Assembly (NCBI GenBank): GCA_046759865.1 | Contig: JBHIDB010000002.1 | Span: forward strand, 1-48,122 | Source of the DNA: Thermoplasmata archaeon | GTDB lineage: Archaea > Thermoplasmatota > Thermoplasmata > RBG-16-68-12 > JAJISG01 | Reading direction: 5' to 3' | DNA length: 48,122 nt | Shown: positions 6,622-34,942 of the stretch, piece after piece | How positions within the stretch are numbered: position 1 is the stretch's first letter | Layout: every line of letters starts with the position of its first letter | Made by a program: the position numbers and the translations under genes | Notes under the pieces: model-generated | The model's input: only the letters and a program-made list of their open reading frames with translations | What the model was told of the DNA's origin: nothing | Database searches by the model: none

Positions 6622-6624
6622 ACG

Positions 6625-6993
6625 TCAGCGGCGGATCTGGACCGTGAGGAGGCTCTCGAGGCTGTCCTTGGAGGTCTCCCAATCTCCTAGCACCTCCCCT
6701 AGACCCGAGACGGCCCCTCGGCCCTTTTCGGTAATCGTGTAGGGCTTCTTCGCGCGTTCGCCCTCCGCCCCCACCGTGACGAAGCCCTTCTCTTCGAGGG
6801 AGAGGAGCGCGGGGTAGACGGCTCCCGGGCCCGGCCGCCACATGCCTCCGGTGCGCGCCGTCACCTCTTCCATGATTTCAAACCCGTGCATCGGCCGATC
6901 CCGGAGGAGGTGGAGGATGACGGGCTTCAGCAGCCCCCGGGGGACAAGGCTAATGCGGAAGGGACCGCAATAACAGTAGAGCTCGTCGGGCAT
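6625..6993 (-). CDS. PadR-family transcriptional regulator
   Basis: LLKPVILHLLRDRPMHGFEIMEEVTARTGGMWRPGPGAVYPALLSLEEKGFV is the PadR winged-helix signature. Confidence 0.85.
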   Translation of the reverse strand: MPDELYCYCGPFRISLVPRGLLKPVILHLLRDRPMHGFEIMEEVTARTGGMWRPGPGAVYPALLSLEEKGFVTVGAEGERAKKPYTITEKGRGAVSGLGEVLGDWETSKDSLESLLTVQIRR

Positions 6994-7194
6994 CTACCCG
7001 GCGGAGGCCTCCTCCCTCAACTTGGCGATTCGCTTCTCCAAGTGGCGAATCTCCAGTTCCAAACGTTCCTTGTACTCCTCCAAGTCATCGACGAACTCCT
7101 CGCCGGACCCCAGTCCGTACGAGAAGCCGCCGTACCCCGGCGGGCACACGCACACGACGCTCCGGACACCTCGATACCGACCCATAGTGGTCAC
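6994..7194 (-). CDS. small Gly-rich/coiled-coil protein (DUF5320-like), first gene of the PadR operon
   Basis: 66 aa. N-terminal Cys/Gly-rich stretch (CVCPPGYGGFSYGLG) followed by a heptad-like tail (LEEYKERLELEIRHLEKRIAKLREE). Its stop abuts the PadR start (6993/6994). Family assignment is from memory only. Confidence 0.55.
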   Translation of the reverse strand: MTTMGRYRGVRSVVCVCPPGYGGFSYGLGSGEEFVDDLEEYKERLELEIRHLEKRIAKLREEASAG

Positions 7195-7206
7195 CTATCG
7201 GTACCG

Positions 7207-7226
7207 ATATATCGATATCGATATAT
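7207..7226. promoter_or_regulatory. perfect 20-bp palindrome ATATATCGATATCGATATAT overlapping the TATA position of the DUF5320-PadR operon (candidate operator)
   Basis: Read directly from the sequence. It lies 13-32 nt upstream of the ATG at 7194 (minus strand) and is the only strongly AT-rich stretch in this neighbourhood. Confidence 0.5.
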
Positions 7227-7258
7227 AATGCTTCTCTCGTCATTTTCGCGAGGGAGGG

Positions 7259-8275
7259 CTACGCCTCCGTAGCTCTTTCCATCCACTCCAAAGAGAGGTT
7301 CTCCTCCTCGAGGGCGGCTCGCAGGACGTCGGCGTAGCGCGACCGCAGAGCGGGGTCGGCGAGCCTTTCCGCGGCCTTGGTCGCGGCCTCTTCGGGGGCC
7401 TCCCGCGAAAAATACAGGATCTTGCGAGCCTCCCCCAGGGCCGTGACCTGGTGCCGGTAGTGGTCGGCCGCGCGCCCCAGACTCGCGCGCCACTCCTCTC
7501 TCATGGCGGCGAGGATCTGGGTGAACTCACTAGCCGTTCGTCGGGCGTCCAAGAGCGCGTTTAGGTTGAGGGCCATGTTGAAGGCCTTGCTCTCAAGGTC
7601 CTCCTCAGCCTCCTGCAAGGCCCCGATCCACGCCTGGTAGGAGGCTAGTCCCGTACGGAGACCCTTCGCTTCGAGCTGCGAAGCTAGAGGCCCTTCTCCT
7701 CGGGCGAACCGGAGCGCCCGCCGCAAGGTCCCCTCGAGGGTGGGTTTCTCCTCCGTCCCGGTCTTCGCGAGGACCAGCGGATTCCGACCATACCCTGCGT
7801 AATTCCACCCGATCCAGGGCTGAAAGGGAATCTCCCCCTCGTCCTTGGCGAAATAGCTCCGTACAAGCAGTCTCTGCGGGTCGGTCCGGTAACCGTAGAC
7901 GATGCAGAATTCCGGGGCCCCAGCGAGCCCGCAGCTGAGGACTGGGAGGGACGCGTCCAATCGGTCCACCAGCTTCTCCCACGCCTCCCCCAGGGGGAGG
8001 TCCACGTGGCTCGTCGTCTGGAGGCCCAGCCCTCGCGCGCCGTTGGCCACGAGGTCCTCGGGCGCGGCGTACGTCATGTCTAGGCTCCACGTGTCCGACC
8101 AGGCTGACCGGAAGGCTCCCCCGCTGATCCCCATCAGCCAGGGATAGCTGGCATCCGTCCCCAGGAAGTCGGCCACGGCCTTCAACGCTCCCACGGGGGT
8201 GAAGCGCTGTCCGCTGGCGAAGCTGAGAGCCGGGACGTCTTTCAGGACCTTCCCTGCCATTGGGTCCGGAAGCAC
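7259..8275 (-). CDS. hypothetical protein (338 aa)
   Basis: Long ORF with genome-typical codon bias and balanced amino-acid composition. The C-terminal third is helical. I recognise no motif with confidence. Confidence 0.6.
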   Translation of the reverse strand: MLPDPMAGKVLKDVPALSFASGQRFTPVGALKAVADFLGTDASYPWLMGISGGAFRSAWSDTWSLDMTYAAPEDLVANGARGLGLQTTSHVDLPLGEAWEKLVDRLDASLPVLSCGLAGAPEFCIVYGYRTDPQRLLVRSYFAKDEGEIPFQPWIGWNYAGYGRNPLVLAKTGTEEKPTLEGTLRRALRFARGEGPLASQLEAKGLRTGLASYQAWIGALQEAEEDLESKAFNMALNLNALLDARRTASEFTQILAAMREEWRASLGRAADHYRHQVTALGEARKILYFSREAPEEAATKAAERLADPALRSRYADVLRAALEEENLSLEWMERATEA

Positions 8276-8326
8276 CCTGCGCTACATCAAGGTAAGCGCC
8301 GATTCCTTCTGGCTCACGAAAGGCCT

Positions 8327-10312
8327 TTGCCTTCCGAACCTTCCCGCCCCGTGATGAGAGCTTGGTCCGGCGCCCAGGTCTTCTTGCTGACGCTGACGAC
8401 CTCTCTCCTGTTCCTCCCGGCCCTGCGCGTCTTCTTCGCCAGCGTGTACTTTCAGAATCTCATCAGCCTATCGCTGAACGCCTCCTTGCTCTTCCTACTC
8501 GTTCTCTTCGCACCTGTCGTCTATCTCATCACGCCCCGTCGCGTCTGGACACGAACCGCCCTTCGCGCCCTCGTGGTGGTCCTCTTCGGTGCGCGCCTGG
8601 GCATGTTCGCGACGGGCGAATCCACGCTCTTGCTCCCCCTTTCCGCTCTGGGGGTCGCCGCGTTCCTGATTCTCCTCCCCCTGCTCCTTGCCGCCCCCTC
8701 CTCGCCGGCGCAGGAACGGTGGGCTCCGGTGGCCCTCGGGTTCGTCCTGGCGTTTGCCATGGACGCCTCGTTGGCCCTGCTAGGGGCGTCCCGCGATCCG
8801 GGCGCGGGCTTCTCCGGGTTGAGCTACTCGCTGGTCTGGGGGGCCGTTAGCGTCTATCTGATCGCGGTTCGAGCCCCTCCCGCACCCGAGGCGGGGCCCG
8901 TCCCCACGAGCTCCCGGTCCCGACGCCTCCTCGTGGGGTCGGCCCTGGGCGCCTGGCTCTTCTTGGAATACGGAGTCCTTGGGAGTCCCTTCGCCGTCGC
9001 CCGATGGAATGCACTCCCCCTCGCCCCCGTCGCCCTCGGCACGATCGTCGGCCTCCTCGCGATGGTCGCCTCCACGATCCCGCCCCTCCATCCGGTGCGC
9101 CACCCTGGGGCTCTCCTCGCCCTCCACGCCCTCGCCCTAGTCGCCCTCATCGACCACGCGTTCGTCCACTCCCCCGTCCTGCCGGGCCTTCTGGTCATCC
9201 TGCAAGCGGTCCTGGTTCTGGACCTCTTTCTCCTCCTGTCCGTTCTCGCGCCCTGGGGCGTCCGGGCGACGGCCGGCGCCCTCCTTTACACTGGCTTGGT
9301 CTTGGTCCTCCTCTTGCTCGTCCTCGCCTTCACCCTTGTGTACGCCTTCGTGCCCCTCTCCTTCCTCTGGCAGGGTGCCGAAGTCGTCCTCCTGCCTGCG
9401 GCCCTTCTCTGGCTCCTTCTTGCCGGGGCGCTTCTCTCCCAGGGGTTCCGACACTTGCGGGTCCCCCCGCTTCCTCGCAGCGCCCTCTCCCTCTTCCTGG
9501 TCCTCATCCTGGCGACATCTGTCGTCCCCTTCGCATTCCCCGCCCGTGCCCCTGGCATGCCCGTGATCCCCGCCCCGTTCGCCGTCCTGACCTACAACGT
9601 CCATCAGGGGTTCAGCAACGACGGCGGCATCGACCCGGACCTGTACGTGCAGGTCATTCGGGATAGCCTTGCGGATGTCATCGCCCTCCAGGAAAGCGAC
9701 ACGGCCCGGTTCACGAGCGGGCACCTGGACCTCGTGTGGTACCTCGGGGCCGCCCTCGGGTACCACACCGCCTACGGGCCCCCGACCCGCGAGCAGAGCT
9801 TCGGTGTGGCCCTCCTCTCTCGCTACCCCATTCTCGAAGCGGACCACCTCTTCCTCACCAGCTCGGAGGCGAAGCGGCCCCTCTTGCAGGCACGAATTGA
9901 CGTCGTGGGCGTCCCGGTTTGGATCCTCGTTCTCCACATGGGGCTGGAGGCCGCGGACCGGGATATCCAGGTTACAGAGGTCCTCGCCCGCGCGGCGGTC
10001 CTCCCAGGCCCCGTCGTCGTGGCGGGGGACTTCAACGCCTGTCCGAGCGGGATGTGCCCCATGCAAGAGGTCGTGGATGGTGTCTATGCATCCATGACGG
10101 GGGCTTACCGGGACGTCTGGACCGAGGCAGGTTCCGCCCGCGACGACCCCCTCGGATTCACCTTCTCCGCTCGGGACCCGCGGCAGCGGATCGACTACGT
10201 CTTCGTTTCCGCGGAACTGACGGTGTTGGGCGCGGTGCGCCTGCGCACCGCTACGGAGGTCCGGGCTTCAGACCACCTTCCGGTCCTCGCGGTCCTGGCG
10301 CTGGGGTCCTAG
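8327..10312 (+). CDS. polytopic membrane domain fused to an endonuclease/exonuclease/phosphatase (EEP) family domain
   Basis: About 400 aa with 10 or more hydrophobic helices, then EEP hallmarks: FAVLTYNVHQGF, VIALQESD, VLVLHMG, VVAGDFNA, RIDYVF, SDHLPVLAVL. Start is TTG 8327 or ATG 8354. Confidence 0.8.
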   Translation: MPSEPSRPVMRAWSGAQVFLLTLTTSLLFLPALRVFFASVYFQNLISLSLNASLLFLLVLFAPVVYLITPRRVWTRTALRALVVVLFGARLGMFATGESTLLLPLSALGVAAFLILLPLLLAAPSSPAQERWAPVALGFVLAFAMDASLALLGASRDPGAGFSGLSYSLVWGAVSVYLIAVRAPPAPEAGPVPTSSRSRRLLVGSALGAWLFLEYGVLGSPFAVARWNALPLAPVALGTIVGLLAMVASTIPPLHPVRHPGALLALHALALVALIDHAFVHSPVLPGLLVILQAVLVLDLFLLLSVLAPWGVRATAGALLYTGLVLVLLLLVLAFTLVYAFVPLSFLWQGAEVVLLPAALLWLLLAGALLSQGFRHLRVPPLPRSALSLFLVLILATSVVPFAFPARAPGMPVIPAPFAVLTYNVHQGFSNDGGIDPDLYVQVIRDSLADVIALQESDTARFTSGHLDLVWYLGAALGYHTAYGPPTREQSFGVALLSRYPILEADHLFLTSSEAKRPLLQARIDVVGVPVWILVLHMGLEAADRDIQVTEVLARAAVLPGPVVVAGDFNACPSGMCPMQEVVDGVYASMTGAYRDVWTEAGSARDDPLGFTFSARDPRQRIDYVFVSAELTVLGAVRLRTATEVRASDHLPVLAVLALGS

Positions 10313-11243
10313 CGTGGGTCGCTAGTAGTCGCCCCAAAACGGGGATCCAGAAAATCTGGAATACAATCATCATGGTGGGGGCCACCACCGCCGTCGGCGC
10401 GAGGAGGGCAAGGGCGATGGTCGCCGCGAGCCCCGCGTTCTTGTAGCTCGAGAAGAGGACCAGGGAGATTCGTAGGTCCGTCTTCAGCCGTTGGAAGAGA
10501 ACCCATACGACTCCTGCCCCCAGCGCCACGATGAGGGCAGAGGCGATCAGGGCCTCGAGGGCGAGGGCCGGACTCTCCAGGAGGACCTGGCGGTTTGCCG
10601 CCCCAATCAAAAAGGTCAAAGGGGCGAAGGAGAGGTTCCGAAGCACACGGACCGACGTCCCCGAAGGGGCAGCCCCACGCACCAACCGGGAGAGGACGAG
10701 AGGGAGAAGGATGAGAACGAGGACCGTGAGGACGAGTTGGGCCGGGCTCACGGCCACGCCGAGGAGCAGGAGGGCCAGGAGGGGCGTGACGGCGAGGGAG
10801 ACGAGGTAGATCAGGGCGTTGGACGCGACGGAGGCTGGGACACTTCCGCGAAGGATGGCCGTGAACGGGATGATGGAGACGGCCGGCGGGACCGCGATGA
10901 GGATGGCCCAACCCTCCCAGAGGAGGGGGGAGGTGAGGAGGGCCGCCCCGAAGAGAAGGGCCGGCAGGAGGCCGAAGCTGAGGGCGAAGGCGAAGGGAAC
11001 GTAACGCAGGTTCTCCCCGAAACCCCGCAAGGGGACCTCGGCCAGGGAGAAGGTCATGAGGGCCGCGAGGGCCGCCATGGCCGCCAGATCCATGCCCGGG
11101 AAGGTGCCTCCCACGAGGAGGCCGGCCGCTAGGGAGAGGAGCATCAATGCCGAAGGGCTCTCGAGAATCCGCGGAAGCTTTCGAATCCCTCGGTCCCGAG
11201 TCCTCCGGGAATGCGACACCGATGAGCCTTCCGAAGGGTCCAA
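10251..11243 (-). CDS. membrane transporter, possibly sodium/bile-acid symporter-like (SBF/ACR3 superfamily)
   Basis: About 9-10 TM helices. FSSYKNAGLAATIALAL resembles the conserved C-terminal block of SBF-like carriers. Family assignment is tentative. The 3' end overlaps the convergent EEP gene by 62 nt. Confidence 0.55.
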   Translation of the reverse strand: MDPSEGSSVSHSRRTRDRGIRKLPRILESPSALMLLSLAAGLLVGGTFPGMDLAAMAALAALMTFSLAEVPLRGFGENLRYVPFAFALSFGLLPALLFGAALLTSPLLWEGWAILIAVPPAVSIIPFTAILRGSVPASVASNALIYLVSLAVTPLLALLLLGVAVSPAQLVLTVLVLILLPLVLSRLVRGAAPSGTSVRVLRNLSFAPLTFLIGAANRQVLLESPALALEALIASALIVALGAGVVWVLFQRLKTDLRISLVLFSSYKNAGLAATIALALLAPTAVVAPTMMIVFQIFWIPVLGRLLATHARTPAPGPRGPEGGLKPGPP

Positions 11244-18258: not shown

Positions 18259-19752
18259 ATGGGATGGCGAAGGGGATGGCTTGGGGCACCCGCGCTCGTG
18301 GGCCTGGTCATTCTCTTCGCCGTCCCGGCCACTGCCCTGGACGTCGGCGTCGATTGGAGCCTTGAGAACGCCCCGTCCGTCGTTACTCTGGTCGCGACAG
18401 GTGTCTCTCAGGAGTCGGCCACCCTTGAGGGGAGCCTCGGTGGCTTGGGAGGGGAACCAAGCGTCCAGGTGAGCTTCGAGTGGGGCACCTCTCCGGCCCT
18501 CGGCCAGGAGACCACCTCACGGACCATGAGCGCGCCTGGGACGTTCGAAGCGACCATCGAAGATCTCACACCCGGGACGACCTACTACTACCGGGCCAAG
18601 GCCGCCGGCAATGGGACCGCACTCGGGGAGACCCTGACCTTCCAGACGGCCCCCGCCGCCGGTGTGGGCGACCTCCTTTCGCAGCTCTGGCTTTGGCTCG
18701 TCCTGCTTGCCATCGCGGCGGTGATGGGCTACCTGCTCACGCGGAGACAGCTGGCCGCCCGGCGCAGGCCCGGGGGGGCGGGTGTGACCGCGGCGAAGGC
18801 CACTAAGAAGGCGCGTGGTGGCCTCTCTGGAAGGGCCGGCGGCATTCGGGCCGTGGCAAAGGACGCCTCGGAGGCCCCCGCGGCCGACCTCGAGGGGGCC
18901 GTCGGCGCGGCGACGCTTTCGGAGACTCTCTGCCCCCACTGCGGCACCCAGCTCGCGGGAACCGCCGTATATTGTTACGGATGCGGTCGCGGACTCACTG
19001 AAGGCGCAGACTTGGATGAGCGGGTCGAGCGCGCCAAGGGGGCCCTGGCGGAGAACGAGCGGGACCGGGACGCCCTCTTCACACTAGGCGCCCACCTCGC
19101 GGCCGCCGGTGAGGCTCAGGAGGCGATCGAAATCCTCAACAAGCTCACTATGCTCGACCCCCACTTCCCGGGGATCTGGTGGGTCAAGGCCCGCGTCTTC
19201 CAGGCGCTTGGGAACCCTCAGGCAGCGGAGGCGGCCATGATGCGGGCCATGCAGGACGATCAGAGTGCGGGCGTGGAGGCGCTCCTCACGGCCGCAGGCA
19301 CGGCGGGAGTAGCGGCCACGGCCCCCGCGCCGACCCCGACGCCGCCTAAGAGCAAAGAGTCCAAGGAGCGCGCGGCGGGAAGAACGGGACCTGAGAAGTG
19401 TCCCCACTGTTCGGCGACCCTCGAACTCGAGGCTGGGAACTGTCCGAACTGCGGTCATTCGGTCCTCGATCAAGGCGAGGCGCTGGAAGCGAAGGTCACA
19501 CGAGCCCTCGCGATTCTCGACCTGGACGAGAACGATGTGGACGCCCTCTTCACCCTCGGAGCCTACCTGCTCTTGGACGGGAAGGTCAAGGAGGCCCTGG
19601 ACACGTTGGACCGCCTCACGCTCCTCGATCCAAGCTACCCGGGCCTCTGGTGGGTCAAGGCGCAAGCCTTCGAGAAGCTGGGAAACAAGAAGGCAGCCGA
19701 GTCGGCGATGGAGCGAGCCCAGAAGGGCGACGAGGACTCGGAGCAGGAATAG
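18259..19752 (+). CDS. bitopic membrane protein: signal peptide, FN3-like ectodomain, TM helix, and two cytoplasmic zinc-ribbon+TPR modules
   Basis: FN3-like block (ATLEGSL...VSFEWGTSP...DLTPGTTYYYRAKA). TM helix LWLWLVLLAIAAVMGYLLT followed by RRQLAARRR. CPHCG...CYGCG and CPHCS...CPNCG are each followed by DALFTLGA...LDP.[FY]PG.WWVKA TPR-like helices. Confidence 0.75.
   Translation: MGWRRGWLGAPALVGLVILFAVPATALDVGVDWSLENAPSVVTLVATGVSQESATLEGSLGGLGGEPSVQVSFEWGTSPALGQETTSRTMSAPGTFEATIEDLTPGTTYYYRAKAAGNGTALGETLTFQTAPAAGVGDLLSQLWLWLVLLAIAAVMGYLLTRRQLAARRRPGGAGVTAAKATKKARGGLSGRAGGIRAVAKDASEAPAADLEGAVGAATLSETLCPHCGTQLAGTAVYCYGCGRGLTEGADLDERVERAKGALAENERDRDALFTLGAHLAAAGEAQEAIEILNKLTMLDPHFPGIWWVKARVFQALGNPQAAEAAMMRAMQDDQSAGVEALLTAAGTAGVAATAPAPTPTPPKSKESKERAAGRTGPEKCPHCSATLELEAGNCPNCGHSVLDQGEALEAKVTRALAILDLDENDVDALFTLGAYLLLDGKVKEALDTLDRLTLLDPSYPGLWWVKAQAFEKLGNKKAAESAMERAQKGDEDSEQE
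18931..19263 (+). repeat. internal protein repeat 1 (zinc ribbon + TPR-like module, aa 225-335)
   Basis: Aligns by eye with aa 381-492 of the same protein: CPHC..., DALFTLGA, LDP.[FY]PG.WWVKA. Confidence 0.8.
19399..19734 (+). repeat. internal protein repeat 2 (zinc ribbon + TPR-like module, aa 381-492)
   Basis: See repeat 1. Confidence 0.8.
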
Positions 19753-23638: not shown

Positions 23639-24658
23639 CTAGGTCCAGCGATCCAGGCGGCTCTGTCCCCGTGACGCAGCACCCTCCTCGAGCTTTTGGA
23701 TCGCCGTCCGAACCCGTTCTTCGGAAAAGTCGAACCCCCGGCAGAGAAACTCCAGGATGGCCGGACCGTCCGGGTCCTCCCACGAGAGGTCGTACTCGTC
23801 GCTGACGTCGGGATCCAGGAAGATCTGGCGCACCTCTTCGCGCTCTTCGATGTCCAGGCCCGTTGCCGCCAGGGTCGCCTCGAGGTCGCCGTGCTCCCGG
23901 ATCAACTTCAAGGCTTTCTTCGGCCCGATACCCTTGATCCCGTCGTTGAAGTCCGTGCCGATGAGGAGGGCCATGTCCACGAGCTGTTCCCGGCTGACGC
24001 CGAGGGACGCCAGGTTTTCCGCGAGGCGGATGAGTTCGATCCGGACGGTGACATACTCGTTCCGCCGAGGGAGCTTCCGCCGACCTGAGAGGGCCAGGTT
24101 CTTGACGAGCCGGGTCGACCCGAAGAGGAGGGCGTCGTGGTCCTGCGACCCCGTCGCCCACGCATCCCCCTTGGCGACCATGTGGCTCGTCTGGGCCTCC
24201 CCATCGGAAGGGGCCTGGACCATCGGGACCCCCATGAGTCCGAGGAGCTCCTGGGCGCTGTCGAGCATCGGATCCGTGAGGCGCACGGCCTGTTGGGCTT
24301 TCCGTCGGGCCCTCTCAAGGTCGCCTGCCTTCCGGGCTTCCTGCCACTCGGCCTCCGCCCGGGCCCGGATCCCCGCACGGGCCTGCAGCACCCCCAGCTT
24401 CAGGGGGTTCGGGGTCCCGTCGAAGACGAAAATCGGGAGGATACCGCGCTGGAGGACGTTGGAGGTCCGGTAGATCAGCCCGCTGAGGTGGGAAGTCACC
24501 CGCCCTCGGCGGTCCATCAGGGGCGTTCCGTCGGGCTGGCGGATGATGGCCAGGAACTGGTAGAGGGCGTTGTAGGCGTCGATGGCGATGACCTTGCCCC
24601 GAAAGTCCTGCAGCCGCTGGGGGGTGTAGATCAGCAGACCCCCGAGGTCGACGCCCAT
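23639..24658 (-). CDS. fen: flap endonuclease 1
   Basis: MGVDLGGLL..., IAIDAYNALYQF, PIFVFDG, APSDGEAQ, GSQDHDALLFG, LIGTDFN and a C-terminal PIP-like tail (QSRLDRW). Confidence 0.92.
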   Translation of the reverse strand: MGVDLGGLLIYTPQRLQDFRGKVIAIDAYNALYQFLAIIRQPDGTPLMDRRGRVTSHLSGLIYRTSNVLQRGILPIFVFDGTPNPLKLGVLQARAGIRARAEAEWQEARKAGDLERARRKAQQAVRLTDPMLDSAQELLGLMGVPMVQAPSDGEAQTSHMVAKGDAWATGSQDHDALLFGSTRLVKNLALSGRRKLPRRNEYVTVRIELIRLAENLASLGVSREQLVDMALLIGTDFNDGIKGIGPKKALKLIREHGDLEATLAATGLDIEEREEVRQIFLDPDVSDEYDLSWEDPDGPAILEFLCRGFDFSEERVRTAIQKLEEGAASRGQSRLDRWT

Positions 24659-24685: not shown

Positions 24686-27600
24686 CTAAGAGCTTTCGCC
24701 CGAGGGGACGATGCCGATGGTGAAGGTCTCGTCGCTGATCTCCACGTCCGCGACGTAACCCTCCTCCCCTGCTTCCGAGACAAACAGGAAGTCTTTGGCA
24801 TTGGCCTCCTTCATGAGGTACTGCCTCTGCCTTCCCAGGAGGTGGCGGAGGCGCTCGTTCGCCACGAGCTGGATGACGATGGGATCCGAGTCTTCTAGCT
24901 CCAAGTCCTTCCGAGCGTCGAGGACGATCTTCATGAGTTCGTTGGCAAAGCCCTCCGCCTCCTCAGCTTCGGTGAGCCGCGTGTCCATGAAGACCATTCC
25001 CGCGCCAAAGTCCTGGACGATTACGTGGGGCGGGACAACAGCCTGGAAGCTGACCATGTCCCCGTCGATCTTTACAATCTGGCCCTCGATGCCCATTTCG
25101 TACCCGCCCTTGTCGATGCCCCTCTTGATTTTCCATGGGTCCTGCGACATGAGGATGAGTTGGATCTTCCGCGACCAGGCCTTGTAGGACCTCTCGACTA
25201 TGTCTTCCTTAATCGTCATATTGAGGTCCACCCCATGCCAGATCTCCCCCGATTCTAGAATGTCGACCTCGCGGGCGTTGGCATGGCTGAGAATCATCGC
25301 CTTGAAGTTCTCCGCTGCGGCGGCTACGTTGGGCGTCTTCGCACGAATCGCGATGCGGGGTACCGGCCAGTGGTACTCAAGGCCCGCCTTGCCGCGGGCC
25401 TTCCGAATGGCCTTGTCGACCTCTTTGACGATTTCGATAAACTCTCTGAGGGACTCGTCGTCGAGTTCGATGGTGATTCCCCCTGTCTCCCCTTGGGGCC
25501 GCTCCGTGGGGGAGAGTTTTTCCTCGACGTCCTTCGGCTCCAAAGCGGTCCTGACGGCGGCTAGACCCGCTATGGGACCCTTCTCCAAGAGGGCCTTCTC
25601 GACCTCCGGCATCATGGCCTCGACGCGGGCCTTGCGCTCCTTCGCGGCCAGACCCTCGAGAAGGTCCTGGGTGATGGGGCTCGAGGCCAGCGCCCCCAGG
25701 TCCGCGCCCTTCGCTTGGGAGATGAGGAGGGCCTTGCGCACGATCTCCCGGAGTCCTTCCAACGTCTCAGGGTCGTCCTGCAGGTCGGTCAGATCGTGCC
25801 CGTAGCGTTCCTCCGCCTCGTAAAGGAGCTGGAGGAGGTACAGCGGGAGGAGTTCGGGCTCGTTCCCGACTACAACAGCGCCGAGGTAGCAGTATTCCCC
25901 CCGCTCGAGGAGAACCTTGCTGTCCCTGAAGTCCATCCGTTTGATGCCGACGCGCTGCTTGCTCGCGAAGGCGTCCCGGAGGAACTCCTGCACGCCCTGG
26001 ATCATGGTGAGGAACAGCTCCTCGTCGAGTTCCTCCCGGAACTTCCTGCTCTCGTGTACCAGCAGTGTTCCATCAGGGAGGAAGAGGAGAGCGTCCTCGA
26101 CGGCATAGGTCCCCTTCGCGGAGACCTTGACGTCCCGGATGTAGTGGGACACGTAGGGGGTGTTGTCCAAGAGGCGTTGGTAGGTGAGCCGCAGATCCGC
26201 CAGCGTCGCGCCGGCCTTGGAGGGGCGGAGCCCGACCGTGACCCGTTTCGTCTCCCCCGGGCCTAGGCCGCTGACCTGAGAGGGCCCCTTGACCTCCATG
26301 TCGCCCCCGAACTGGATGGAGACGTCCTTGGCAGGCCAGCTCCCCTTGTTCGTGAGTTCCATCTCGTACCTCCCCCAGCTCCCCAGCTGGAGGGGAGGAA
26401 AGGTCCCCTCAACATGCACCTCGGGCTCCTTCCCTTCGAACTCCGTCTGCAGGGGCACCTGGATGGCCTGTCGGGCCTGGGGGAGCAGCACCTCGAGCTC
26501 GTCAACATCTTCCCGTTCGACGGCCTCGGTTGCTAGCTGGACGATGGCCTTCGCCCCATCCGTCACCAGCCCCTGTTCCGACGCCCGCTCGTACATCTCC
26601 GAGAGGTCTTCGAGCTCCTCGCGGTGGCGTCTCAGGAGGTAGGTCCGTTTTAGGTCCCGGGCCTCCTCGTGGGCGGACTCCAGACGCTTGGCGACGTGGC
26701 CTAGCTTGCCCTTGTCCCAAGCGTCTTGGGCGGCTCCAAGCTCCTCCTTCAGGCCGCTAACGTCGGCGCCCTCCTGCTCGAGGACCTCTACGGTACGAGA
26801 AAGTCGTCCCACCGTGGTTTCGACTTCCGCGGCCAGGACTTCTTCCTTTAGGGCCTGTACCGTGTCGTCCAAGTTCGAGACGACGCGGGCCGCCCCCTCG
26901 TAATCGCCGACTTCCAGGGCCGCCCGCGCCGTTTGCAGGTCCGTTTCGCTCCCCTCTACGCCGTGACCCAGGAGGGAGAGTCCTTCCAGGTCCTCGCTCA
27001 GGGAGTTCACTCCTGCCTCCAGCTTCTTCTGGAGTTCCTGCTGCGTCGCCAGGGCCATCTCCACGGCATCCTGGATGAGACTCCATGCGTCCTGGACGTC
27101 GTTCTCAAGGACCCCCCGGGCCTTCTCCAACAGACCCTCCGCTTCCGAAAGGTCCAGGCCGAGTGCCGTGCCCCCCCGGATGAGGTTCATCGCCTCCCCA
27201 ATGGCGGTTTCCGTCCCCTTCGGGTCCATGATCCAGCCATCCTTGGTGAAGTAGCACAGCTTGCGGCAGATCTCCTCGACCCCCTCCAGCTCGCTCAACA
27301 GGCCGCTCCACTTGTCGAGTTTCTCCCCAAACTTGCGTTCGATCTCGTTGATGAGCTCGACCATGTAGAGGGAAAGGAGGTCCGGTTCCTCGCCCAGGAG
27401 GACGGCGGTGAGGTATACGTCGGGGCCTCGCTCGATGACGATGCGACTCTCCCCGAATTCGAGACGTCGGAGGCCCACCTTCGTCCGGGTACGGAAGGAG
27501 TCCTTCACGAAGTCCTGGACCACGGTGAGCATGCCGCTGAAGACGTCCTCGTCGATCTCGTCCTGGATCTTGCGCGTCTGATGGCTGATGAGCCGGCCGT

Positions 27601-30600
27601 CGGCGTGCACGAGGAAAGCGTCCTCGACGATGTAGGTGCCTGCGGGGGAGGCATCCACGGAGGCCGCCTCTGTAACGTGGACCACCTCGCCGTCGAGGAC
27701 CCCCCGGTAGGTCAGGTCGACCTCCAGCGGGAGATGCCCGTGGGCCCGCGCCCTGACGTCCGCGCTGACGAGGTGGTTCTCCTGGGGCGCGAGACGCTTT
27801 AAGGGCTCGAGACCCTTGACCTCGACGTCCCCGCGCAGGCGGGCACTCACGTCGCTCGCGGGGGTCTGGCCGCTGTTCTTCACGTAGAACTCAAAACGAC
27901 TCCACCGGCCCTCTTCGAGCCCCTTCTTGGGAATGTCCAACTGGAGGGTGGGCCGGGCCTCGGGGGGCAGGTCCTTGGCGGCGGCACGAAGGAGGTCCCG
28001 GGCCTGACCCACGGTCGCCAGGGCGCCCCCTGGGTCGTCTTTGAGGAGACGCTTCGCCTCGGACAGGGCCTCCTTTGCGTCTTCGATCTCGAGCCCAAGC
28101 TTCTCGGCGAGACGGATGCCCCGGGAGACCTCCTTGATGGCGGCCTTGGCCGTGGGCGTTCCGTCGGCCCCGAGCTTGGTACGAGCGGCCGCAAGCATCT
28201 CCTCCATGCCCTCGGTGTCCCCGGTTTCCCACGAAGACTCGGCCTGGTCAAGGATGTCCAGGGCGTCCTCCACCGAAACGTCGGTCTCTTCACCCCCCTT
28301 TCGTTCCTTCCGCTTGGCCAGAGGCGAGGCCTGGAGGTCCTTGAGGATCTCGGAGACCCCCTGGGTGAGGGCCAGGGCTCGATCCTGCTCTCCCGCTGCG
28401 GCCGCCTCGCGCGCTTCCTCCAGAAGCGTGTTGGCTCGCTCCAGGCGGACGCCGGGTCCCTCGAGACTCTTCAGCTGCGCCTGAAGCTCCTCCACGACCT
28501 CGTCCATGTTCGCCAGCTCCGCTTTGATCCGCGTGTCCTCCACGATGTCCTCGATGACCTTGCAGTATTCCAGCGCCTCCACGTAGCGGCCGGCCTTGAG
28601 AGACCCCTGGGCGGTGGCGTAGACGTTCTCCCCTCGGGGGACGGAGAGCTTCTCCGCCTTGGCCTGTTTCAGCTTCTTGCTGACGCTCTTAAGGAGCTCC
28701 TTGGCCGCGATTTCTAGACCTCGAGCGAGGCCGTTCGCGATCTCCTCCAGCTCGGCCAGTTTCCCATCCGCCGTCTCGAAGTCGGCTTCGGCCAGGGATT
28801 CCTCTACCTCCCCCAGGAGTTCGTCAGAATCCTCGATGGTGATGTCCGCTCGACGGAGGTCTCGGAGCACCTCCTTCAGGTGGAAGAGGCGCCCCTGGAA
28901 ATCCAGGATCTTGCGGGTCACTTCGCCGCGGGCCTCGGACCGGGCCCGCTCCTTCTGGGAGCGGGTCTTCCTCTCCGCGATACGGGCCACCTCAATGGCT
29001 TCATCGAACCGGTTTTCGTCGAAGAGCTCCTGGGCCATAAGCAGCATGTCCTGCGCTTCGGGCATCGGCTTCCAGTTCTTCTCCGCCTTCTTCAGCTGAC
29101 GCTTGGCGGAAGCGATGAACTCGTGGGCGGCCCTCGCCAGATCGCTCTGGATGGCGGACGCCGTTTCCTCCAGCTCCTCGAGGAGGGGGGCTGCTTTCGC
29201 GAGCTCGTTCCCTTGCAGAGCGGCCACCGCCTGGTGAAAGGTGTCCTGGGAGTCGCTCACGTCGATGCCCGCCTTCCAGAGGCTCTCCAGAATCACCTTG
29301 ACGCGGACGGAGAGCTCCGAGAGGCGAGACAGCTCGTCCGCCTGCGCATCGGCGAGGCGTTGGGCCTCCCGAGCTTGGGCCTCCGCAACCTTGACCTCAA
29401 GGCCCTGGGCCTCCTCCAAGGCCTCTGCCAGGGAATCCTCCTTCAGGGCTTTCTTTAGCTTCGGCAGGGCGTCACGGAAGTCCCCCGCTTCATCCAGATC
29501 TTGGAGCTCCTGAATGATGCGCTCCAACTCCCCGAGTCGCGTCGCGATGTGCTTCTTGAGGGCCGCTTTGAGGCTGGCCTCCAGCTCCGAGACGACTTGG
29601 AGGAGGACTTGGAGATCCCGGACCTCCTTCTTCCCGAGTGCCGTCTCTGCGCGCTCGACGGCATCGTCCAAAGCTCCGTGATCGATCTCGGCCCGGTCCA
29701 GCAACGCGCCGAACTCCCGGGCCGTGGTGATCTTCTCTCCGGCCTCCTTCAGGGCGGCCTCCGAGCGCATGTCCTCGAGTTCTTTCTCCGCGATCTTGTC
29801 GAAGTGATCAATACGGGCCTGCTTGCAGGCCTCGAGCCCGAGGTTGGCCAGATCGAGGGCTTGGAGCGCGTCCTCATCCACCAGAGACGTCTCGGCCCGG
29901 TCGTGGAAGGCCTGCGCCTGCGGCACGCTGACCTCCAGTCGGTCCAGACCTGTGAGCTCCGTCTTCAGGTCTTCCAACGACCGCAACGCGGCGGCTGCGA
30001 GGACTTCCCTCAGGCCCTCCGTGGTCTGCTCGGACCTGGTGAGGAGGTTTTCTGCCTCCTTGATGCGCTTGTCCGTGAGGGCCTCCGACGCCTTCTCCAG
30101 CAAGCCGGCGGCGGCGCTGACCTCGATACCGGCAACCTTGAGCTCCGCCTGGGTCGTCCGTAGGCCGGCCATGCGCCGGATGAGTTCGTTCTCGCGCTTC
30201 GTGGCCTCGGCCTCAAACTTCGCCTCCACGAGGGTCTCGATCTCGGTGTGGCTCCCTTTGCTGAGCGCCTTCTCCACTTCGACGAGGAGTTCCCGGGCCC
30301 CCGAAGCGCTAACGCCCCCCTTGCCCGCCTTGTCGACGAGCATTTCCACCGTGTTGAGGACGAGATCCCGCTCCCGTTCCCGGCGCGCCTTTGCCGTCTC
30401 CCGCTGGGCCCGACTCCAGGCCTTTCGATAGACCGGCCAGCTTCCCTTCCCGAGCGCCTCCTCTGCCTCGGAGGCGGCTGCCTCGGCCTTCGCTGGGTCG
30501 GCCTTCATCGCGCGCAGGTCGTCGATTTCCGAGGTGAGAAGGTCCAGAGACTCACGAGCCTTCCGCGCGCGGGCAGCCTCCTTTGCAAGGGCACTCGCCT

Positions 30601-31609
30601 TTCGGAGGTGCTTCGTGACGTCCCCGAACTTCGCGTCGGCCAGTGCCTTCCATGCTTTCTCGAGGACCGGAATGGTCGCTGAGAGGTCCGACCCTTCCGC
30701 GGCTTCCGCCTCGAGGGCCTTTTCCACTTTGCGGATCGAGGCCTCCCCGATCTGTGTCTTGCGGGCCTTCTCGCCAAACTCCCGGGCGGTCCGCGTCCAC
30801 TTCTGGACGTCGGCGTAGACCCCGGTTTTCAGGGCCTTCCGGGCCCGCGCCAGGTATTCCTCGCCTTCCGCAACGTCGGCACGGCGGTCCGCCGCCGCCT
30901 TCAGCTTTCGCTCTACCCCATCAATGAGTTCGACCGCCCGCGCGTACTTGCGGGCATAGTCGGCCGCCCGACTCGCGGTCGCGGCCAGCTCATTGGCCTG
31001 CGTGAAGTCCGCCTTCTGGAGGGCTTCCTGGGCCTTCTGGAGGAACTCCTCGGCCTTCTCGGTCTGACCTCCCCGTTCTCGGGCGTATCCGATCCGTTTC
31101 TGGGCATCCTCGAGGCGCTTCCACGCCTTGCCGCCATGGCCGGTGAGCTTCAGACCCCGTAGGGCGGCCTGGAGGCCCTGGGACAGGTTCTTGAAGTCGT
31201 CCCGTTGGACGCGCTCCTGCAGGGCGATGACCTTCTCTTGAGCGGCCTCCACGTCAATCCCGGCCCCTTCGGCGATCCGAAGCTTGAGCTTCGCCTCGCT
31301 GATCTTGCGGTCCCAGGTCGTCCGCCGTCTGGCCAGATCCAATCCCTTCTTCAGGCCCTGGCCAAACCGCGCGGCCTCCTTCACGTCGTCGTTCTCGAGA
31401 GCCTTCCGGGCCTGGGAGAGGAGGGATCGCCCGTAGCGCGCGTCAAACCCCTCCGGGACCGACTCCATCTTCTTGGTCGTTCCCTCGAGGAGCCGCTCCG
31501 CCTCCTTCCTTCCCGTCTTCCGCGGCCGCGCCTTCGCTCCGGCGCCGCAGAAGGAACAGGCTTGCGTCTCCTCGATGACGGGGGCGTCGCAGAGCGGGCA
31601 GGAGGTCAA
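24686..31609 (-). CDS. giant (2307 aa) cytoplasmic multidomain protein of unknown function: Zn ribbon, ~22 helical repeats, 2x (beta-sandwich + longin/roadblock-like module), IleRS-C-terminal-like domain
   Basis: Uninterrupted 6.9-kb ORF with genome-typical codon bias. TTG start with AGGAG 8 nt upstream (31618-31622) and a TATA-like box at 31654-31664. CPLC-x10-CSFC at aa 4-21. No signal peptide, TM helix or P-loop seen. Confidence 0.85.
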   Translation of the reverse strand: MTSCPLCDAPVIEETQACSFCGAGAKARPRKTGRKEAERLLEGTTKKMESVPEGFDARYGRSLLSQARKALENDDVKEAARFGQGLKKGLDLARRRTTWDRKISEAKLKLRIAEGAGIDVEAAQEKVIALQERVQRDDFKNLSQGLQAALRGLKLTGHGGKAWKRLEDAQKRIGYARERGGQTEKAEEFLQKAQEALQKADFTQANELAATASRAADYARKYARAVELIDGVERKLKAAADRRADVAEGEEYLARARKALKTGVYADVQKWTRTAREFGEKARKTQIGEASIRKVEKALEAEAAEGSDLSATIPVLEKAWKALADAKFGDVTKHLRKASALAKEAARARKARESLDLLTSEIDDLRAMKADPAKAEAAASEAEEALGKGSWPVYRKAWSRAQRETAKARRERERDLVLNTVEMLVDKAGKGGVSASGARELLVEVEKALSKGSHTEIETLVEAKFEAEATKRENELIRRMAGLRTTQAELKVAGIEVSAAAGLLEKASEALTDKRIKEAENLLTRSEQTTEGLREVLAAAALRSLEDLKTELTGLDRLEVSVPQAQAFHDRAETSLVDEDALQALDLANLGLEACKQARIDHFDKIAEKELEDMRSEAALKEAGEKITTAREFGALLDRAEIDHGALDDAVERAETALGKKEVRDLQVLLQVVSELEASLKAALKKHIATRLGELERIIQELQDLDEAGDFRDALPKLKKALKEDSLAEALEEAQGLEVKVAEAQAREAQRLADAQADELSRLSELSVRVKVILESLWKAGIDVSDSQDTFHQAVAALQGNELAKAAPLLEELEETASAIQSDLARAAHEFIASAKRQLKKAEKNWKPMPEAQDMLLMAQELFDENRFDEAIEVARIAERKTRSQKERARSEARGEVTRKILDFQGRLFHLKEVLRDLRRADITIEDSDELLGEVEESLAEADFETADGKLAELEEIANGLARGLEIAAKELLKSVSKKLKQAKAEKLSVPRGENVYATAQGSLKAGRYVEALEYCKVIEDIVEDTRIKAELANMDEVVEELQAQLKSLEGPGVRLERANTLLEEAREAAAAGEQDRALALTQGVSEILKDLQASPLAKRKERKGGEETDVSVEDALDILDQAESSWETGDTEGMEEMLAAARTKLGADGTPTAKAAIKEVSRGIRLAEKLGLEIEDAKEALSEAKRLLKDDPGGALATVGQARDLLRAAAKDLPPEARPTLQLDIPKKGLEEGRWSRFEFYVKNSGQTPASDVSARLRGDVEVKGLEPLKRLAPQENHLVSADVRARAHGHLPLEVDLTYRGVLDGEVVHVTEAASVDASPAGTYIVEDAFLVHADGRLISHQTRKIQDEIDEDVFSGMLTVVQDFVKDSFRTRTKVGLRRLEFGESRIVIERGPDVYLTAVLLGEEPDLLSLYMVELINEIERKFGEKLDKWSGLLSELEGVEEICRKLCYFTKDGWIMDPKGTETAIGEAMNLIRGGTALGLDLSEAEGLLEKARGVLENDVQDAWSLIQDAVEMALATQQELQKKLEAGVNSLSEDLEGLSLLGHGVEGSETDLQTARAALEVGDYEGAARVVSNLDDTVQALKEEVLAAEVETTVGRLSRTVEVLEQEGADVSGLKEELGAAQDAWDKGKLGHVAKRLESAHEEARDLKRTYLLRRHREELEDLSEMYERASEQGLVTDGAKAIVQLATEAVEREDVDELEVLLPQARQAIQVPLQTEFEGKEPEVHVEGTFPPLQLGSWGRYEMELTNKGSWPAKDVSIQFGGDMEVKGPSQVSGLGPGETKRVTVGLRPSKAGATLADLRLTYQRLLDNTPYVSHYIRDVKVSAKGTYAVEDALLFLPDGTLLVHESRKFREELDEELFLTMIQGVQEFLRDAFASKQRVGIKRMDFRDSKVLLERGEYCYLGAVVVGNEPELLPLYLLQLLYEAEERYGHDLTDLQDDPETLEGLREIVRKALLISQAKGADLGALASSPITQDLLEGLAAKERKARVEAMMPEVEKALLEKGPIAGLAAVRTALEPKDVEEKLSPTERPQGETGGITIELDDESLREFIEIVKEVDKAIRKARGKAGLEYHWPVPRIAIRAKTPNVAAAAENFKAMILSHANAREVDILESGEIWHGVDLNMTIKEDIVERSYKAWSRKIQLILMSQDPWKIKRGIDKGGYEMGIEGQIVKIDGDMVSFQAVVPPHVIVQDFGAGMVFMDTRLTEAEEAEGFANELMKIVLDARKDLELEDSDPIVIQLVANERLRHLLGRQRQYLMKEANAKDFLFVSEAGEEGYVADVEISDETFTIGIVPSGESS
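25775..26428 (-). repeat. giant protein module 2 (aa 1728-1945), paralogous to module 1
   Basis: See module 1. Confidence 0.85.
27305..27955 (-). repeat. giant protein module 1 (aa 1219-1435): beta-sandwich (CARDB-like) + alpha/beta longin/roadblock-like domain
   Basis: Aligns along its whole length with aa 1728-1945. For example W.R[FY]E..[VL].N.G..PA.DVS......[DG]VEVKG, L.LTY, GTY.VEDA.L...DG.L..H..RK...E.DE..F..M...VQ.F..D.F......G..R..F..S.....ERG...YL.AV..G.EP.LL.LY...L...E...G..L. Confidence 0.85.
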
Positions 31610-33149: not shown

Positions 33150-33983
33150 GTGGGGTTTGACGAGGCCCTCATCGACGAGTTGGAGGAGAGAGCTCGGGTT
33201 CTTCGGGTTCACGTCGTCCGCATGACCCACGCCGCGGGCTCTGGCCACCCCGGAGGCTCCCTCTCTGCGGCCGACGTCATCGCCGCGCTCTACTTCCACA
33301 CACTCCGCCTGGACCCGAAGGACCCTGCATGGGCGGACCGGGACCGGTTCGTCCTCAGCAAGGGACACGGCTGCCCGGTCCTCTACGCCGCCTTGGCGGA
33401 GCGGGGTTTCTTTCCGGTGGAGGAGCTCGTGACCTTGCGCCAGCTGGGCGGACGCCTCCAGGGCCACCCGGAGTATGGCACCACCCCAGGCGTCGAAGCG
33501 CCCGCGGGGGCCGAGGGCCACGGCTTGAGCATCTCGATCGGGATGGCGCTCGCTGGGCGCTTGGACGGGCGGGATTACCGTGTCTACACGATGGTCGGAG
33601 ACGGGGAGAACGACGTCGGGCAGACGTGGGAGGCCGCCATGGCCGCCGCCAACTTCAAGCTCGACAACCTGACGGCCATCCTGGACCGGAACCAGCTCCA
33701 GCAGGAGCGCCGGACTGAGGACATCATGCCGCTTGAGCCCTTGGCGGACAAGTGGAAGGCCTTCGGCTGGAACGTCCTGGAGATCGACGGTCACGATATG
33801 GGGTCGATTCTCGGGGCCCTCTACGAGGCCCGGACCGCGAAGGGCCGGCCCACGATGATCATCGCTCAGACGGTGAAGGGGAAGGGCGTGAGCTTCATGG
33901 AGGGCGTCCTCCGGTTCCACGGCACGGCTCCGACGGACGAGGAGCTGGAGCGGGCCCTGGAAGAGCTGGGGGAGGCTTCGTGA
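33150..33983 (+). CDS. transketolase, N-terminal (TPP-binding) subunit
   Basis: AGSGHPGGSLSAADV, DRFVLSKGH, GSLGHGLS-like (GAEGHGLSI), GDGENDVGQTWEA. Confidence 0.9.
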   Translation: MGFDEALIDELEERARVLRVHVVRMTHAAGSGHPGGSLSAADVIAALYFHTLRLDPKDPAWADRDRFVLSKGHGCPVLYAALAERGFFPVEELVTLRQLGGRLQGHPEYGTTPGVEAPAGAEGHGLSISIGMALAGRLDGRDYRVYTMVGDGENDVGQTWEAAMAAANFKLDNLTAILDRNQLQQERRTEDIMPLEPLADKWKAFGWNVLEIDGHDMGSILGALYEARTAKGRPTMIIAQTVKGKGVSFMEGVLRFHGTAPTDEELERALEELGEAS

Positions 33984-34942
33984 ACCCGCAGCCCTGGAAG
34001 GTCGAGTCCATGCGAAACCACTTCGGTCAGGCCATGGTCGAGCTCGGGCGGGAGCGAGAGGACGTCGTCGTGGTGGGGGCTGATACCACAGAATCCCTGA
34101 AGACAGCCCTTTTCGGCGAGGAGTTCCCTGATCGCCTTTTCAACGTGGGCATCGCAGAGCAGAACATGGTCGCCATCGCCGCGGGGTTGGCCATGAGTGG
34201 GAAGGTGGCCTTCGCGGCCACGTACTCCGTCTTTGGGACCTCCCAGGTGTACAACATCATCCGGCAATCCGTGGCCTACCCCAACCTCCCCGTCAAGATT
34301 TTCTGCAGCCACGCCGGCCTCACAGTAGGGCCGGACGGGGCGACCCATCAGATGAATGAGGACGTGGGTTTGCTCCGGTCCCTCCCCAATATGAAGGTCC
34401 TCGTGCCCTGCGACGGGTTGGAGGTGGCAAAGGCTGTCCACCTGGCCCCCGAGGTTCCGGGTCCCCTCTACTGCCGCTTTAGCCGGGCCAAGTTCCCGGT
34501 GCTCACCGCGCCCGAGGACCCGTTCGAGCTGGGCAGGGCAACGGTCATGCGGGAGGGGGAAGACGTGGCCCTGGTCGCCAACGGCATCATGGTCTCCCGG
34601 GCGCTGGAGGCCGCGGAAGCGCTAGCGACGCAAGGAGTGGACGCACGGGTCGTGAACAACAGCAGTGTGAAACCGTTGGACCGGGACACGCTCCTGGAGG
34701 CGGCTCGGGGTACCGGCGCGGTGGTCACGGCGGAGGAGCACACGGTCCTCGGCGGGATGGGCAGCGCGGTTTCAGAGCTTCTGGCCCAGGAGTATCCCGT
34801 CCCCATGCAGATCGTCGGGGTGCCGGACATCTTCGGGGAGAGCGGAGACGGCTTCGCGGTCCTGGACAAGTACGGACTGACCGCGGAAAGCATCATTAGG
34901 GCGGCCATGCATGTTCTGGCGACCAAGGAGATGGTCGGGTGA
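33980..34942 (+). CDS. transketolase, C-terminal (pyrimidine-binding) subunit
   Basis: FNVGIAEQNMV, FAATYSVF, GLTVGPDGATHQ, LPNMKVLVPCD. GTG start overlaps the stop of the N-terminal subunit (GTGA). I discarded the upstream part of the track ORF. Confidence 0.9.
   Translation: MNPQPWKVESMRNHFGQAMVELGREREDVVVVGADTTESLKTALFGEEFPDRLFNVGIAEQNMVAIAAGLAMSGKVAFAATYSVFGTSQVYNIIRQSVAYPNLPVKIFCSHAGLTVGPDGATHQMNEDVGLLRSLPNMKVLVPCDGLEVAKAVHLAPEVPGPLYCRFSRAKFPVLTAPEDPFELGRATVMREGEDVALVANGIMVSRALEAAEALATQGVDARVVNNSSVKPLDRDTLLEAARGTGAVVTAEEHTVLGGMGSAVSELLAQEYPVPMQIVGVPDIFGESGDGFAVLDKYGLTAESIIRAAMHVLATKEMVG

Follow-up and report, generated by a model that had tools for sequence, protein, structure and literature searches.

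What is the role of a two-domain module that occurs twice within one giant archaeal protein? The question is raised by contig JBHIDB010000002.1 of a Thermoplasmata archaeon, which was analysed over positions 1 to 48,122 (48,122 nucleotides (nt) in total; hereafter the window) and contains on its reverse strand an open reading frame (ORF) of 2,307 amino acids (aa). The source lineage belongs to the uncultured Thermoplasmata of soil or sediment. Each module of the giant protein comprises an immunoglobulin (Ig)-like beta-sandwich followed by an alpha/beta domain with a predicted longin/roadblock fold. Judging from homologue searches, the alpha/beta domain represents a large, unannotated, Thermoplasmatota-wide family, in one subfamily of which it forms the cytoplasmic tail of a membrane protein encoded next to a Ras-family GTPase. 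The explanation favoured here, tentatively, is that the modules provide a docking platform on a helical cytoplasmic scaffold, with copy 1 binding a partner common to the family. Residue n of the giant ORF begins at position 31609-3(n-1), and its parts are as follows.

24686..31609 (-): giant ORF, 2,307 aa, with a TTG start and a TAG stop
31535..31609 (-): C4 zinc-ribbon-like motif (CPLC...CSFC), aa 1-25, at the giant N-terminus, read from the sequence
27647..27946 (-): module 1, Ig-like CARDB-type beta-sandwich, aa ~1222-1321, assigned by Pfam CARDB and by homology to the modelled copy 2
27275..27634 (-): module 1, predicted longin/roadblock-fold alpha/beta domain, aa ~1326-1445, assigned by AlphaFold2 (AF2) and Foldseek
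26420..27274 (-): linker between the modules, 285 aa, weakly similar to the N-terminal helical repeats
26120..26419 (-): module 2, Ig-like beta-sandwich, aa ~1731-1830, assigned by AF2 of aa 1725-1955, Foldseek and weak Pfam matches
25748..26107 (-): module 2, predicted longin/roadblock-fold alpha/beta domain (diverged copy), aa ~1835-1954, assigned by AF2 and a profile match of 136 bits
24710..25141 (-): C-terminal domain of the giant (Pfam DUF5915), aa 2157-2300, resembling the C-terminal domain of archaeal/eukaryote-type isoleucyl-tRNA synthetase (IleRS)

The first-pass annotation of the window had described positions 25775-27955, which correspond exactly to residues 1219-1945 of the giant ORF, as an internal duplication of a CARDB-like sandwich joined to a longin- or roadblock-like domain. 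This duplication was confirmed. The pairwise alignment of the two copies, named beforehand as the test of the claim, was significant in BLASTP (79/201 identities (39%), 62% positives, ungapped, E 2e-43), and both of the motifs quoted for the two halves were found in the translation. In a masked self-comparison of the whole giant, residues 1231-1400 matched 1740-1909 (E 5e-38) and residues 1318-1456 matched 1827-1965 (E 5e-27); the repeat spans approximately residues 1231-1456 and 1740-1965, and the offset is constant at 509 residues. The remaining self-matches were weak similarities among the helical regions and the linker (18-74/1452-1504, 64-199/1558-1699, and 1059-1186/1508-1628). The same two copies occur at approximately the same spacing in 46 orthologous giants from other Thermoplasmata metagenome-assembled genomes (MAGs), and a few relatives (P0005, L059, and L061) have three. 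Between species, the alpha/beta domain of copy 1 is 69% identical to other copies 1 and 39% identical to its own copy 2. The duplication is old and conserved, being shared by 46 orthologues, with copy 1 nearer to copy 1 of other species. A recent or artefactual repeat was rejected, given the 39% identity of the copies and their presence in all these orthologues.

The alpha/beta domain of copy 1 (aa 1318-1445) was modelled with AF2 from a 53-sequence alignment (A1), with a predicted local distance difference test (pLDDT) of 87.1 and a predicted template modelling score (pTM) of 0.80. The model contains the elements E9-18, E23-28, H37-54, E64-68, E71-77, E81-89, H95-115, and H121-124, that is, a beta-beta-alpha-beta-beta-beta-alpha order with a long helix 2 and then a short helix, exactly as had been predicted from the sequence. 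Copy 2 was modelled with the same order and the same short helix (pLDDT 85-96). A Foldseek search of copy 1 against the PDB gave 70 matches at E<=1e-3, the best 50 of which were identified. They include the longin domains of zeta-COP (5mc7_A, E 2.2e-5) and of AP-1/AP-2 sigma (4p6z_S, query-based template modelling score (TMq) 0.59, root-mean-square deviation (rmsd) 3.3 Å; 6uri_S, TMq 0.60), and the roadblock domains of MglB (3t1s and 1j3w), MglC, Streptomyces avermitilis Roadblock/LC7 (3kye_C), LAMTOR, the Rag C-terminal domains, and Asgard Roadblock2/3. The template modelling scores (TM-scores) reached 0.55-0.58 for 3t1s, 1j3w, and 3kye_C and 0.59-0.64 for 5x6u_B (LAMTOR); 6ehp_B, 9jq8_B, and 9jue were also matched, and the values on superposition with longin structures were moderate. 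The only match outside the longin and roadblock groups among the best 50 of 70 was a profilin-family allergen at rank 50. The fold anticipated from the letters alone (longin, roadblock, or MglB type) was thus recovered by both the model and the structural matches. The model begins with strands and lacks an N-terminal helix, which agrees with the order of longin and not with that of roadblock domains, and the element before the alpha/beta domain in the module is the last strand of the Ig sandwich. In general, longin domains are platforms on which small GTPases dock or are regulated and on which coats assemble.

For the first half of the module, the giant matched Pfam CARDB (PF07705) with 30.1 bits against a gathering cut-off of 22.7, in two stretches, the best being residues 1226-1297, and the sandwich of module 2 gave weak Pfam matches to NPCBM_assoc and HYDIN Ig. 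Module 2 (aa 1725-1955, 231 aa) was modelled with AF2 from a 37-sequence alignment (A5) with a mean pLDDT of 92.6 and a pTM of 0.79; its first half is all-beta, with strands at model residues 7-106 (pLDDT 93-97). Foldseek matched module 2 in the PDB to the TRAP luminal Ig domain, the PapD/ASH domains of CEP192, HYDIN, and OCRL, the MG domains of alpha2-macroglobulin, and the CARDB structures of Pyrococcus PF1109 (2kl6, E 1.3e-4, target-based score (TMt) 0.57; 3idu_B, TMt 0.61). The CARDB-like assignment of the first-pass annotation therefore stands on the Pfam score, the all-beta model, and the 2kl6 and 3idu matches. Because the pTM of 0.79 was obtained over a 231-aa model of two domains, the Ig sandwich and the alpha/beta domain are suggested to form one rigid unit. 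The giant contains neither a transmembrane segment nor a signal peptide (maximum 19-residue hydropathy 1.28) and is predicted to be soluble; the reading of the CARDB half as part of a secreted adhesin was rejected on these grounds. Within its known family this half is unremarkable, but its cytoplasmic setting is unusual.

The two copies are unequally conserved. According to the mean pairwise identity among the 46 orthologous giants, the alpha/beta half reaches 69% in copy 1 vs 41% in copy 2, and the Ig halves have 50% in both modules. Copy 1 carries the family motif DEDVFSGMLTVVQDFVKDSF on helix 1, and its signature in this helix (D-E-D-I-F-S-G-M-L-T-V-V-Q-D-F-V-K-D-S-F), together with H-x-[ST]-R-K/R after strand 2 and W-x-G at the end of the domain, is common to the membrane-tail paralogues described below. 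In copy 2 the core and the opening of helix 2 (E-P-x-L-L-P-L-Y) are retained, but the helix-1 motif is gone. Tandem-pair membrane proteins such as P0033 likewise have a strong first and a weak second copy. Such an asymmetry is expected if the domains pair, one being face-active and the other structural, an arrangement that would resemble heterodimeric roadblock pairs. In the proposed mechanism, the conserved helix-1 and beta2-loop surface of copy 1 would bind a cytoplasmic partner common to the family, and copy 2, having lost this surface, would serve as a diverged structural partner.

The same asymmetry is typical of obligate pseudo-heterodimers and, like the conserved 509-residue spacing and the existence of three-copy variants, would also fit a self-assembly element, whose two or three copies pair within or between chains and fold or polymerise the giant with no external partner. 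This explanation is considered distinctly unlikely, since copy 1 has kept the surface motif of those membrane-tail paralogues that carry the domain only once and so lack a pairing partner in cis; this argues for a shared external partner.

The extent of the family was estimated by an exhaustive phmmer search with the alpha/beta domain against 1.84 billion cluster representatives (50% clusters), which returned 3,525 homologues at E<=1e-3 and 1,304 at E<=1e-10; word-indexed searches had yielded no more than 4 and 19 proteins. Scanning with a 12-sequence alignment, in which each GTDB species was represented by one genome, gave 288 confirmed loci, and the best 79 of them all bear the names Thermoplasmata, Thermoplasmatota, or Methanomassiliicoccales, or the equivalent label 'Methanobacteriota/Euryarchaeota archaeon'. 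The domain occurs in three contexts. The first is formed by soluble giants with two or three Ig-longin modules. In the second, comprising 78 of the 154 sampled members, the domain lies directly behind a transmembrane helix; most of these are type-I surface proteins of 1,000-2,300 aa with the domain as a cytoplasmic tail and with FG-GAP, PKD, Big, beta-helix, and DUF11 ectodomains (Pfam), and others are four-transmembrane proteins with two tandem copies (e.g., P0033). The third includes fusions to TIR, to a STAND NTPase with TPR, to TPR alone, and to DUF835. The STAND, TIR, DUF835, and four-transmembrane tandem-pair architectures come from P0121, P0066, P0053, P0118, and P0033; in the STAND AAA_16 NTPase with TPR repeats, the alpha/beta domain, as an insertion, separates the Walker A region from the remainder of the protein.

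The prevalence of the second context provides the main rival to GTPase docking. The longin-like domains of the giant could pair via edge strands, in the manner of roadblock dimers, with the homologous tail domains of surface proteins and so link the ectodomains to the helical scaffold as a membrane-skeleton tether, for which a GTPase is unneeded. Half of the sampled members being juxtamembrane cytoplasmic tails is consistent with such an arrangement, as is the presence of giants and membrane-anchored paralogues in the same genomes (CP070751.1, loci L061 and L069; CAZJIP01, loci L055 and L078). Tandem pairs exist in polytopic membrane proteins. The PDB matches of the alpha/beta domain are dimers or complexes, and it is well established that roadblock and longin domains typically homo- or heterodimerise. 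However, a gene-neighbourhood link between giants and surface proteins was not found in the related loci, and the conserved Ras gene beside one subfamily would be left unexplained. Tethering is, on balance, possible but rather unlikely.

The third context would suit a sensor, in which the alpha/beta domain binds a small molecule or peptide and signals to fused effectors, acting as a regulatory sensor in the giant. The fusions to TIR, to STAND NTPase plus TPR, and to DUF835 in other proteins agree with this, and so do the polar positions that are nearly invariant in the family (H26, D36, the Q48-D53 stretch, and W117). However, PAS, GAF, and other small-molecule sensors are absent among the best 50 of the 70 Foldseek matches, and none of the PADLOC defence-system models covers the alpha/beta domain itself, which makes a sensory role very improbable.

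Partner genes for the favoured docking function were sought among GTPases by screening for motifs and by iterating a search that started from a Ras-family sequence. A Ras-family GTPase of 174-180 aa (Pfam Ras, 131.6 bits) adjoins one membrane-anchored subfamily. Its gene precedes, by 33-220 nt and on the same strand, that of a type-I membrane protein of ~1,400 aa in which the alpha/beta domain is the only sizeable cytoplasmic part. The pair is present in loci L070-L075, L077, L161, L162, and L164-L168, and in L070 it is arranged as follows.

5574-6137 (L070): Ras-family GTPase
6170-10462 (L070): type-I membrane protein

The best 120 of the 1,271 cluster representatives that match this GTPase at E<=1e-15 are 82-97% identical to it, whereas its membrane-protein partner is only ~50% identical. 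The pair recurs in L157 with 46% identity for the GTPase and 30% for the partner, with DUF835 added and in a different neighbourhood. Because the alpha/beta domain is the only sizeable cytoplasmic part of the GTPase-linked proteins, a Ras-family small GTPase would be the best partner candidate for copy 1 of the giant, another longin-like domain being the alternative.

A number of observations weigh against this assignment. No Ras-like GTPase was detected in the window, as the first-pass annotation had stated for the genes adjacent to the giant, nor in the 0.92 Mb of loci L001-L067 (giants and close relatives), and none is located within 10 kb of the giant in any related locus. In the largest membrane-anchored subfamily (FG-GAP/PKD), a Ras gene lies within 8 kb in only 3 of 80 metagenomic loci, and just one of these three is upstream on the same strand; Ras adjacency is an exception within the family. 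Synteny in the main GTPase lineage extends over the entire neighbourhood (FolC, AsnS-like, DUF885, and amino-acid permease), and much of the adjacency there may have come from shared ancestry rather than selection; taken alone, it is therefore weak evidence. The longin/roadblock resemblance is seen only at the fold level (TM-score 0.45-0.60), since sequence searches against solved structures with the alpha/beta domain and with the 53-sequence profile gave chance-level matches only. The alpha/beta domains of the window had no match in Pfam (E<=10), NCBIfam, or PADLOC. Finally, the same fold serves GTPase-unrelated roles, for example, in dynein LC7 and in the structural core of adaptor complexes.

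Because the structure-database sequence searches remained at chance level, the longin/roadblock link rests on the fold and on a faint Robl_LC7 signal. In a permissive Pfam scan of 53 family members, Robl_LC7 was the only family matched more than once (4 of 53, best E 0.0012), and Intu_longin_1 (E 0.05) and Fuz_longin_1 (E 0.23) were each matched a single time. Of the Pfam models named by the first-pass annotation, CARDB matched the giant, and the Robl_LC7 and longin models failed to match the copies in the window. The alpha/beta domain is therefore taken to form a new family within the longin/roadblock fold class and not to belong to PF03259. Its fold is known; the family itself is large and unannotated, and its architectures are new.

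Taken together, these data indicate that Ras-type GTPases are genuinely linked to the alpha/beta family, although not throughout it, and that the giant has no such link at the gene-neighbourhood level. We infer a GTPase-docking scaffold role for the giant, all direct genomic support coming from the membrane-anchored paralogues beside the Ras-family GTPase. The alpha/beta domain would act as a protein-docking platform on an Ig spacer, as longin/roadblock domains do elsewhere, and the giant would be a scaffold in the cytoplasm on which one or two docking sites are displayed. With the binding, the partner, and the scaffold role considered jointly, this mechanism is regarded as plausible, at somewhat less than an even chance. 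A broader version seems improbable: a Thermoplasmatota-wide longin-like docking system in which the domain marks the tails of surface proteins, the near-invariant Ras-family GTPase reads or regulates these tails, and the giant gathers them as a cortical scaffold. Cultured Thermoplasmatales lack a cell wall, and such a system, if real, would give archaea outside Asgard an analogue of the coupling between membrane and cytoskeleton that is under GTPase control.

Outside the modules, the giant is presumably mostly alpha-helical, A, E, L, K, or R accounting for 59% and Pro for 1% of its first 1,200 residues. The N-terminal motif gave weak Pfam matches to UPF0547 and Zn_ribbon_3 (E 0.4-0.7). The orthologues (loci L001-L058) are 2,000-2,650 aa long, and all of them have kept a tail of ~330-390 aa after the last module. 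In this tail, aa 2157-2300 matched Pfam DUF5915 with 44.8 bits against a cut-off of 27, and the C-terminal ~150-200 residues of the giant matched residues 815-1013 of IleRS (8wnd_A) in phmmer (E 8e-4). One would not expect a helical scaffold protein to end in an IleRS-like C-terminal domain. A previously featureless ORF of 2,307 aa has thereby acquired a defined architecture composed of a zinc ribbon, helical repeats, two Ig-longin modules, and an IleRS-C-terminal-like domain.

The window has a G+C content of ~65%, and its genes are those of an archaeal housekeeping region, including FEN1 (XPG_N, XPG_I), DUF92, phosphoglucomutase (PGM), NDP-sugar transferase, ribulose-phosphate epimerase (RPE), a split transketolase, transaldolase, COX3, PEPCK, DHODH, and a MoxR ATPase. 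The nearest public locus (L001, a 'Thermoplasmata archaeon' MAG) is 94% identical over the queried domain. The gene next to the giant is the following.

23639..24658 (-): FEN1 flap endonuclease (Pfam XPG_I, XPG_N), 27 nt downstream of the giant

FEN1 is encoded on the same strand as the giant, its ATG coming 27 nt after the giant's TAG stop, and co-transcription of the giant with this replication/repair nuclease is possible. The order RPE-giant-FEN1-DUF92 is kept in ~40 Thermoplasmata MAG loci, down to ~57% domain identity, and is followed after DUF92 by PGM and an NTP-transferase on the other strand. RPE lies upstream of the transketolase genes on the strand opposite to theirs and, with the transketolase and transaldolase genes, makes up a non-oxidative pentose-phosphate cluster flanking the giant; at 33150-34942 (+) the transketolase is encoded by separate N-terminal and C-terminal genes, followed by transaldolase. 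A transketolase split into two genes is the usual archaeal arrangement. Elsewhere in the window, 18259-19752 (+) encodes a protein of 497 aa with a purple-acid-phosphatase-N-like Ig domain, zinc ribbons, and TPR repeats, whose synteny with the neighbourhood of the giant is kept in the closest MAGs. GC skew (-0.17) and AT skew (-0.34) are both negative and unusually strong in the stretch 8001-10000, which coincides with an ORF of 661 aa at 8327-10312 (+), the C-terminal 240 aa of which belong to Exo_endo_phos and the N-terminal 420 aa of which had no Pfam match.

In the related loci, a FolC-like Mur-ligase gene is located directly upstream of the giants of L059, L061, L062, and L063, which are three-copy or related, and a FolC-like gene also adjoins the GTPase/surface-protein pair in another lineage (L070-L077). 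This recurrence may be a coincidence or a remnant of a shared ancestral locus. The conserved neighbours of the ~1,700-aa FG-GAP/PKD subfamily (HAD hydrolase, methyltransferase, ABC-2 permease, and zinc-ribbon protein) reflect ordinary lineage synteny and give no functional clue. The neighbourhood of P0004, a protein with a transmembrane segment and the domain on a 2.5-Mb Thermoplasmata chromosome, contains neither a GTPase nor another informative gene.

Longin and roadblock domains, along with small GTPases, usually enter discussion as components from which eukaryotic membrane traffic is built and, in prokaryotes, in connection with MglA/MglB and the Asgard archaea. The literature search retrieved Asgard and Myxococcus studies on longin, roadblock, and GTPase proteins and nothing on the Thermoplasmatota alpha/beta family or the giant. 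Domain libraries miss a very large family of the same fold, comprising ~3,500 clusters at 50% identity with no Pfam, NCBIfam, or PADLOC model, and a new domain definition would annotate thousands of hypothetical proteins. The commonest position of the family is the cytoplasmic tail of huge surface proteins, and the pairing of one subfamily with an unusually conserved Ras-family GTPase offers a testable handle on the surface-to-cytoplasm connection in mostly uncultured archaea.

Among known systems, CARDB (PF07705) is shared with the first half of the module, as seen from the Pfam score and the PF1109 structures; CARDB domains are usually extracellular, whereas that of the giant occurs in a protein with no signal peptide or transmembrane segment and is apparently rigidly coupled to a platform domain of cytoplasmic type. 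The appendage ('ear') domains of alpha-adaptin and gamma-COP likewise combine an Ig-like sandwich with a following alpha/beta platform and act as a protein-interaction hub. Foldseek aligned module 2 with them over the full length (1w80, 1pzd, 1r4x, and 5a1u_E; 224-258 columns, E ~5e-5 to 3e-4), but the TM-scores are only 0.28-0.34, the rmsd is 11-13 Å, and the domain orientation and platform topology differ, so that the likeness is an architectural analogy and not evidence of homology.

The longin domains of the sigma-adaptin/zeta-COP type (SNARE-like superfamily) have a five-stranded antiparallel sheet and a secondary-structure order that are both seen in the modelled alpha/beta domain, and they provide the best Foldseek matches. 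There is, however, no significant sequence similarity to them, the family of the giant is found in Thermoplasmatota and not in eukaryotes or Asgard, and, unlike longin, the domain follows an Ig sandwich in the same chain or comes immediately after a transmembrane helix. Roadblock/LC7 (PF03259) shares the alpha/beta sandwich fold and the recurrent weak Pfam signal, and paralogues of the giant's domain are encoded beside a small GTPase, as MglB is beside MglA. The roadblock order is alpha-beta-beta-alpha-beta-beta-beta, whereas the giant's domain has no N-terminal helix and stays below the Robl_LC7 cut-off. In contrast to MglA-MglB, the GTPase neighbouring the paralogues is Ras/Rab-like by Pfam and not MglA-specific, and the giant has no GTPase neighbour. 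In the SRX domain of SRalpha bound to SRbeta, a longin-fold domain and a small GTPase meet at the membrane. The L070 and L157 pairs, each with a Ras GTPase and a transmembrane-anchored longin-like tail, resemble this complex, which serves as a lead only, but with the anchoring reversed, the longin-like domain being membrane-anchored and the GTPase soluble.

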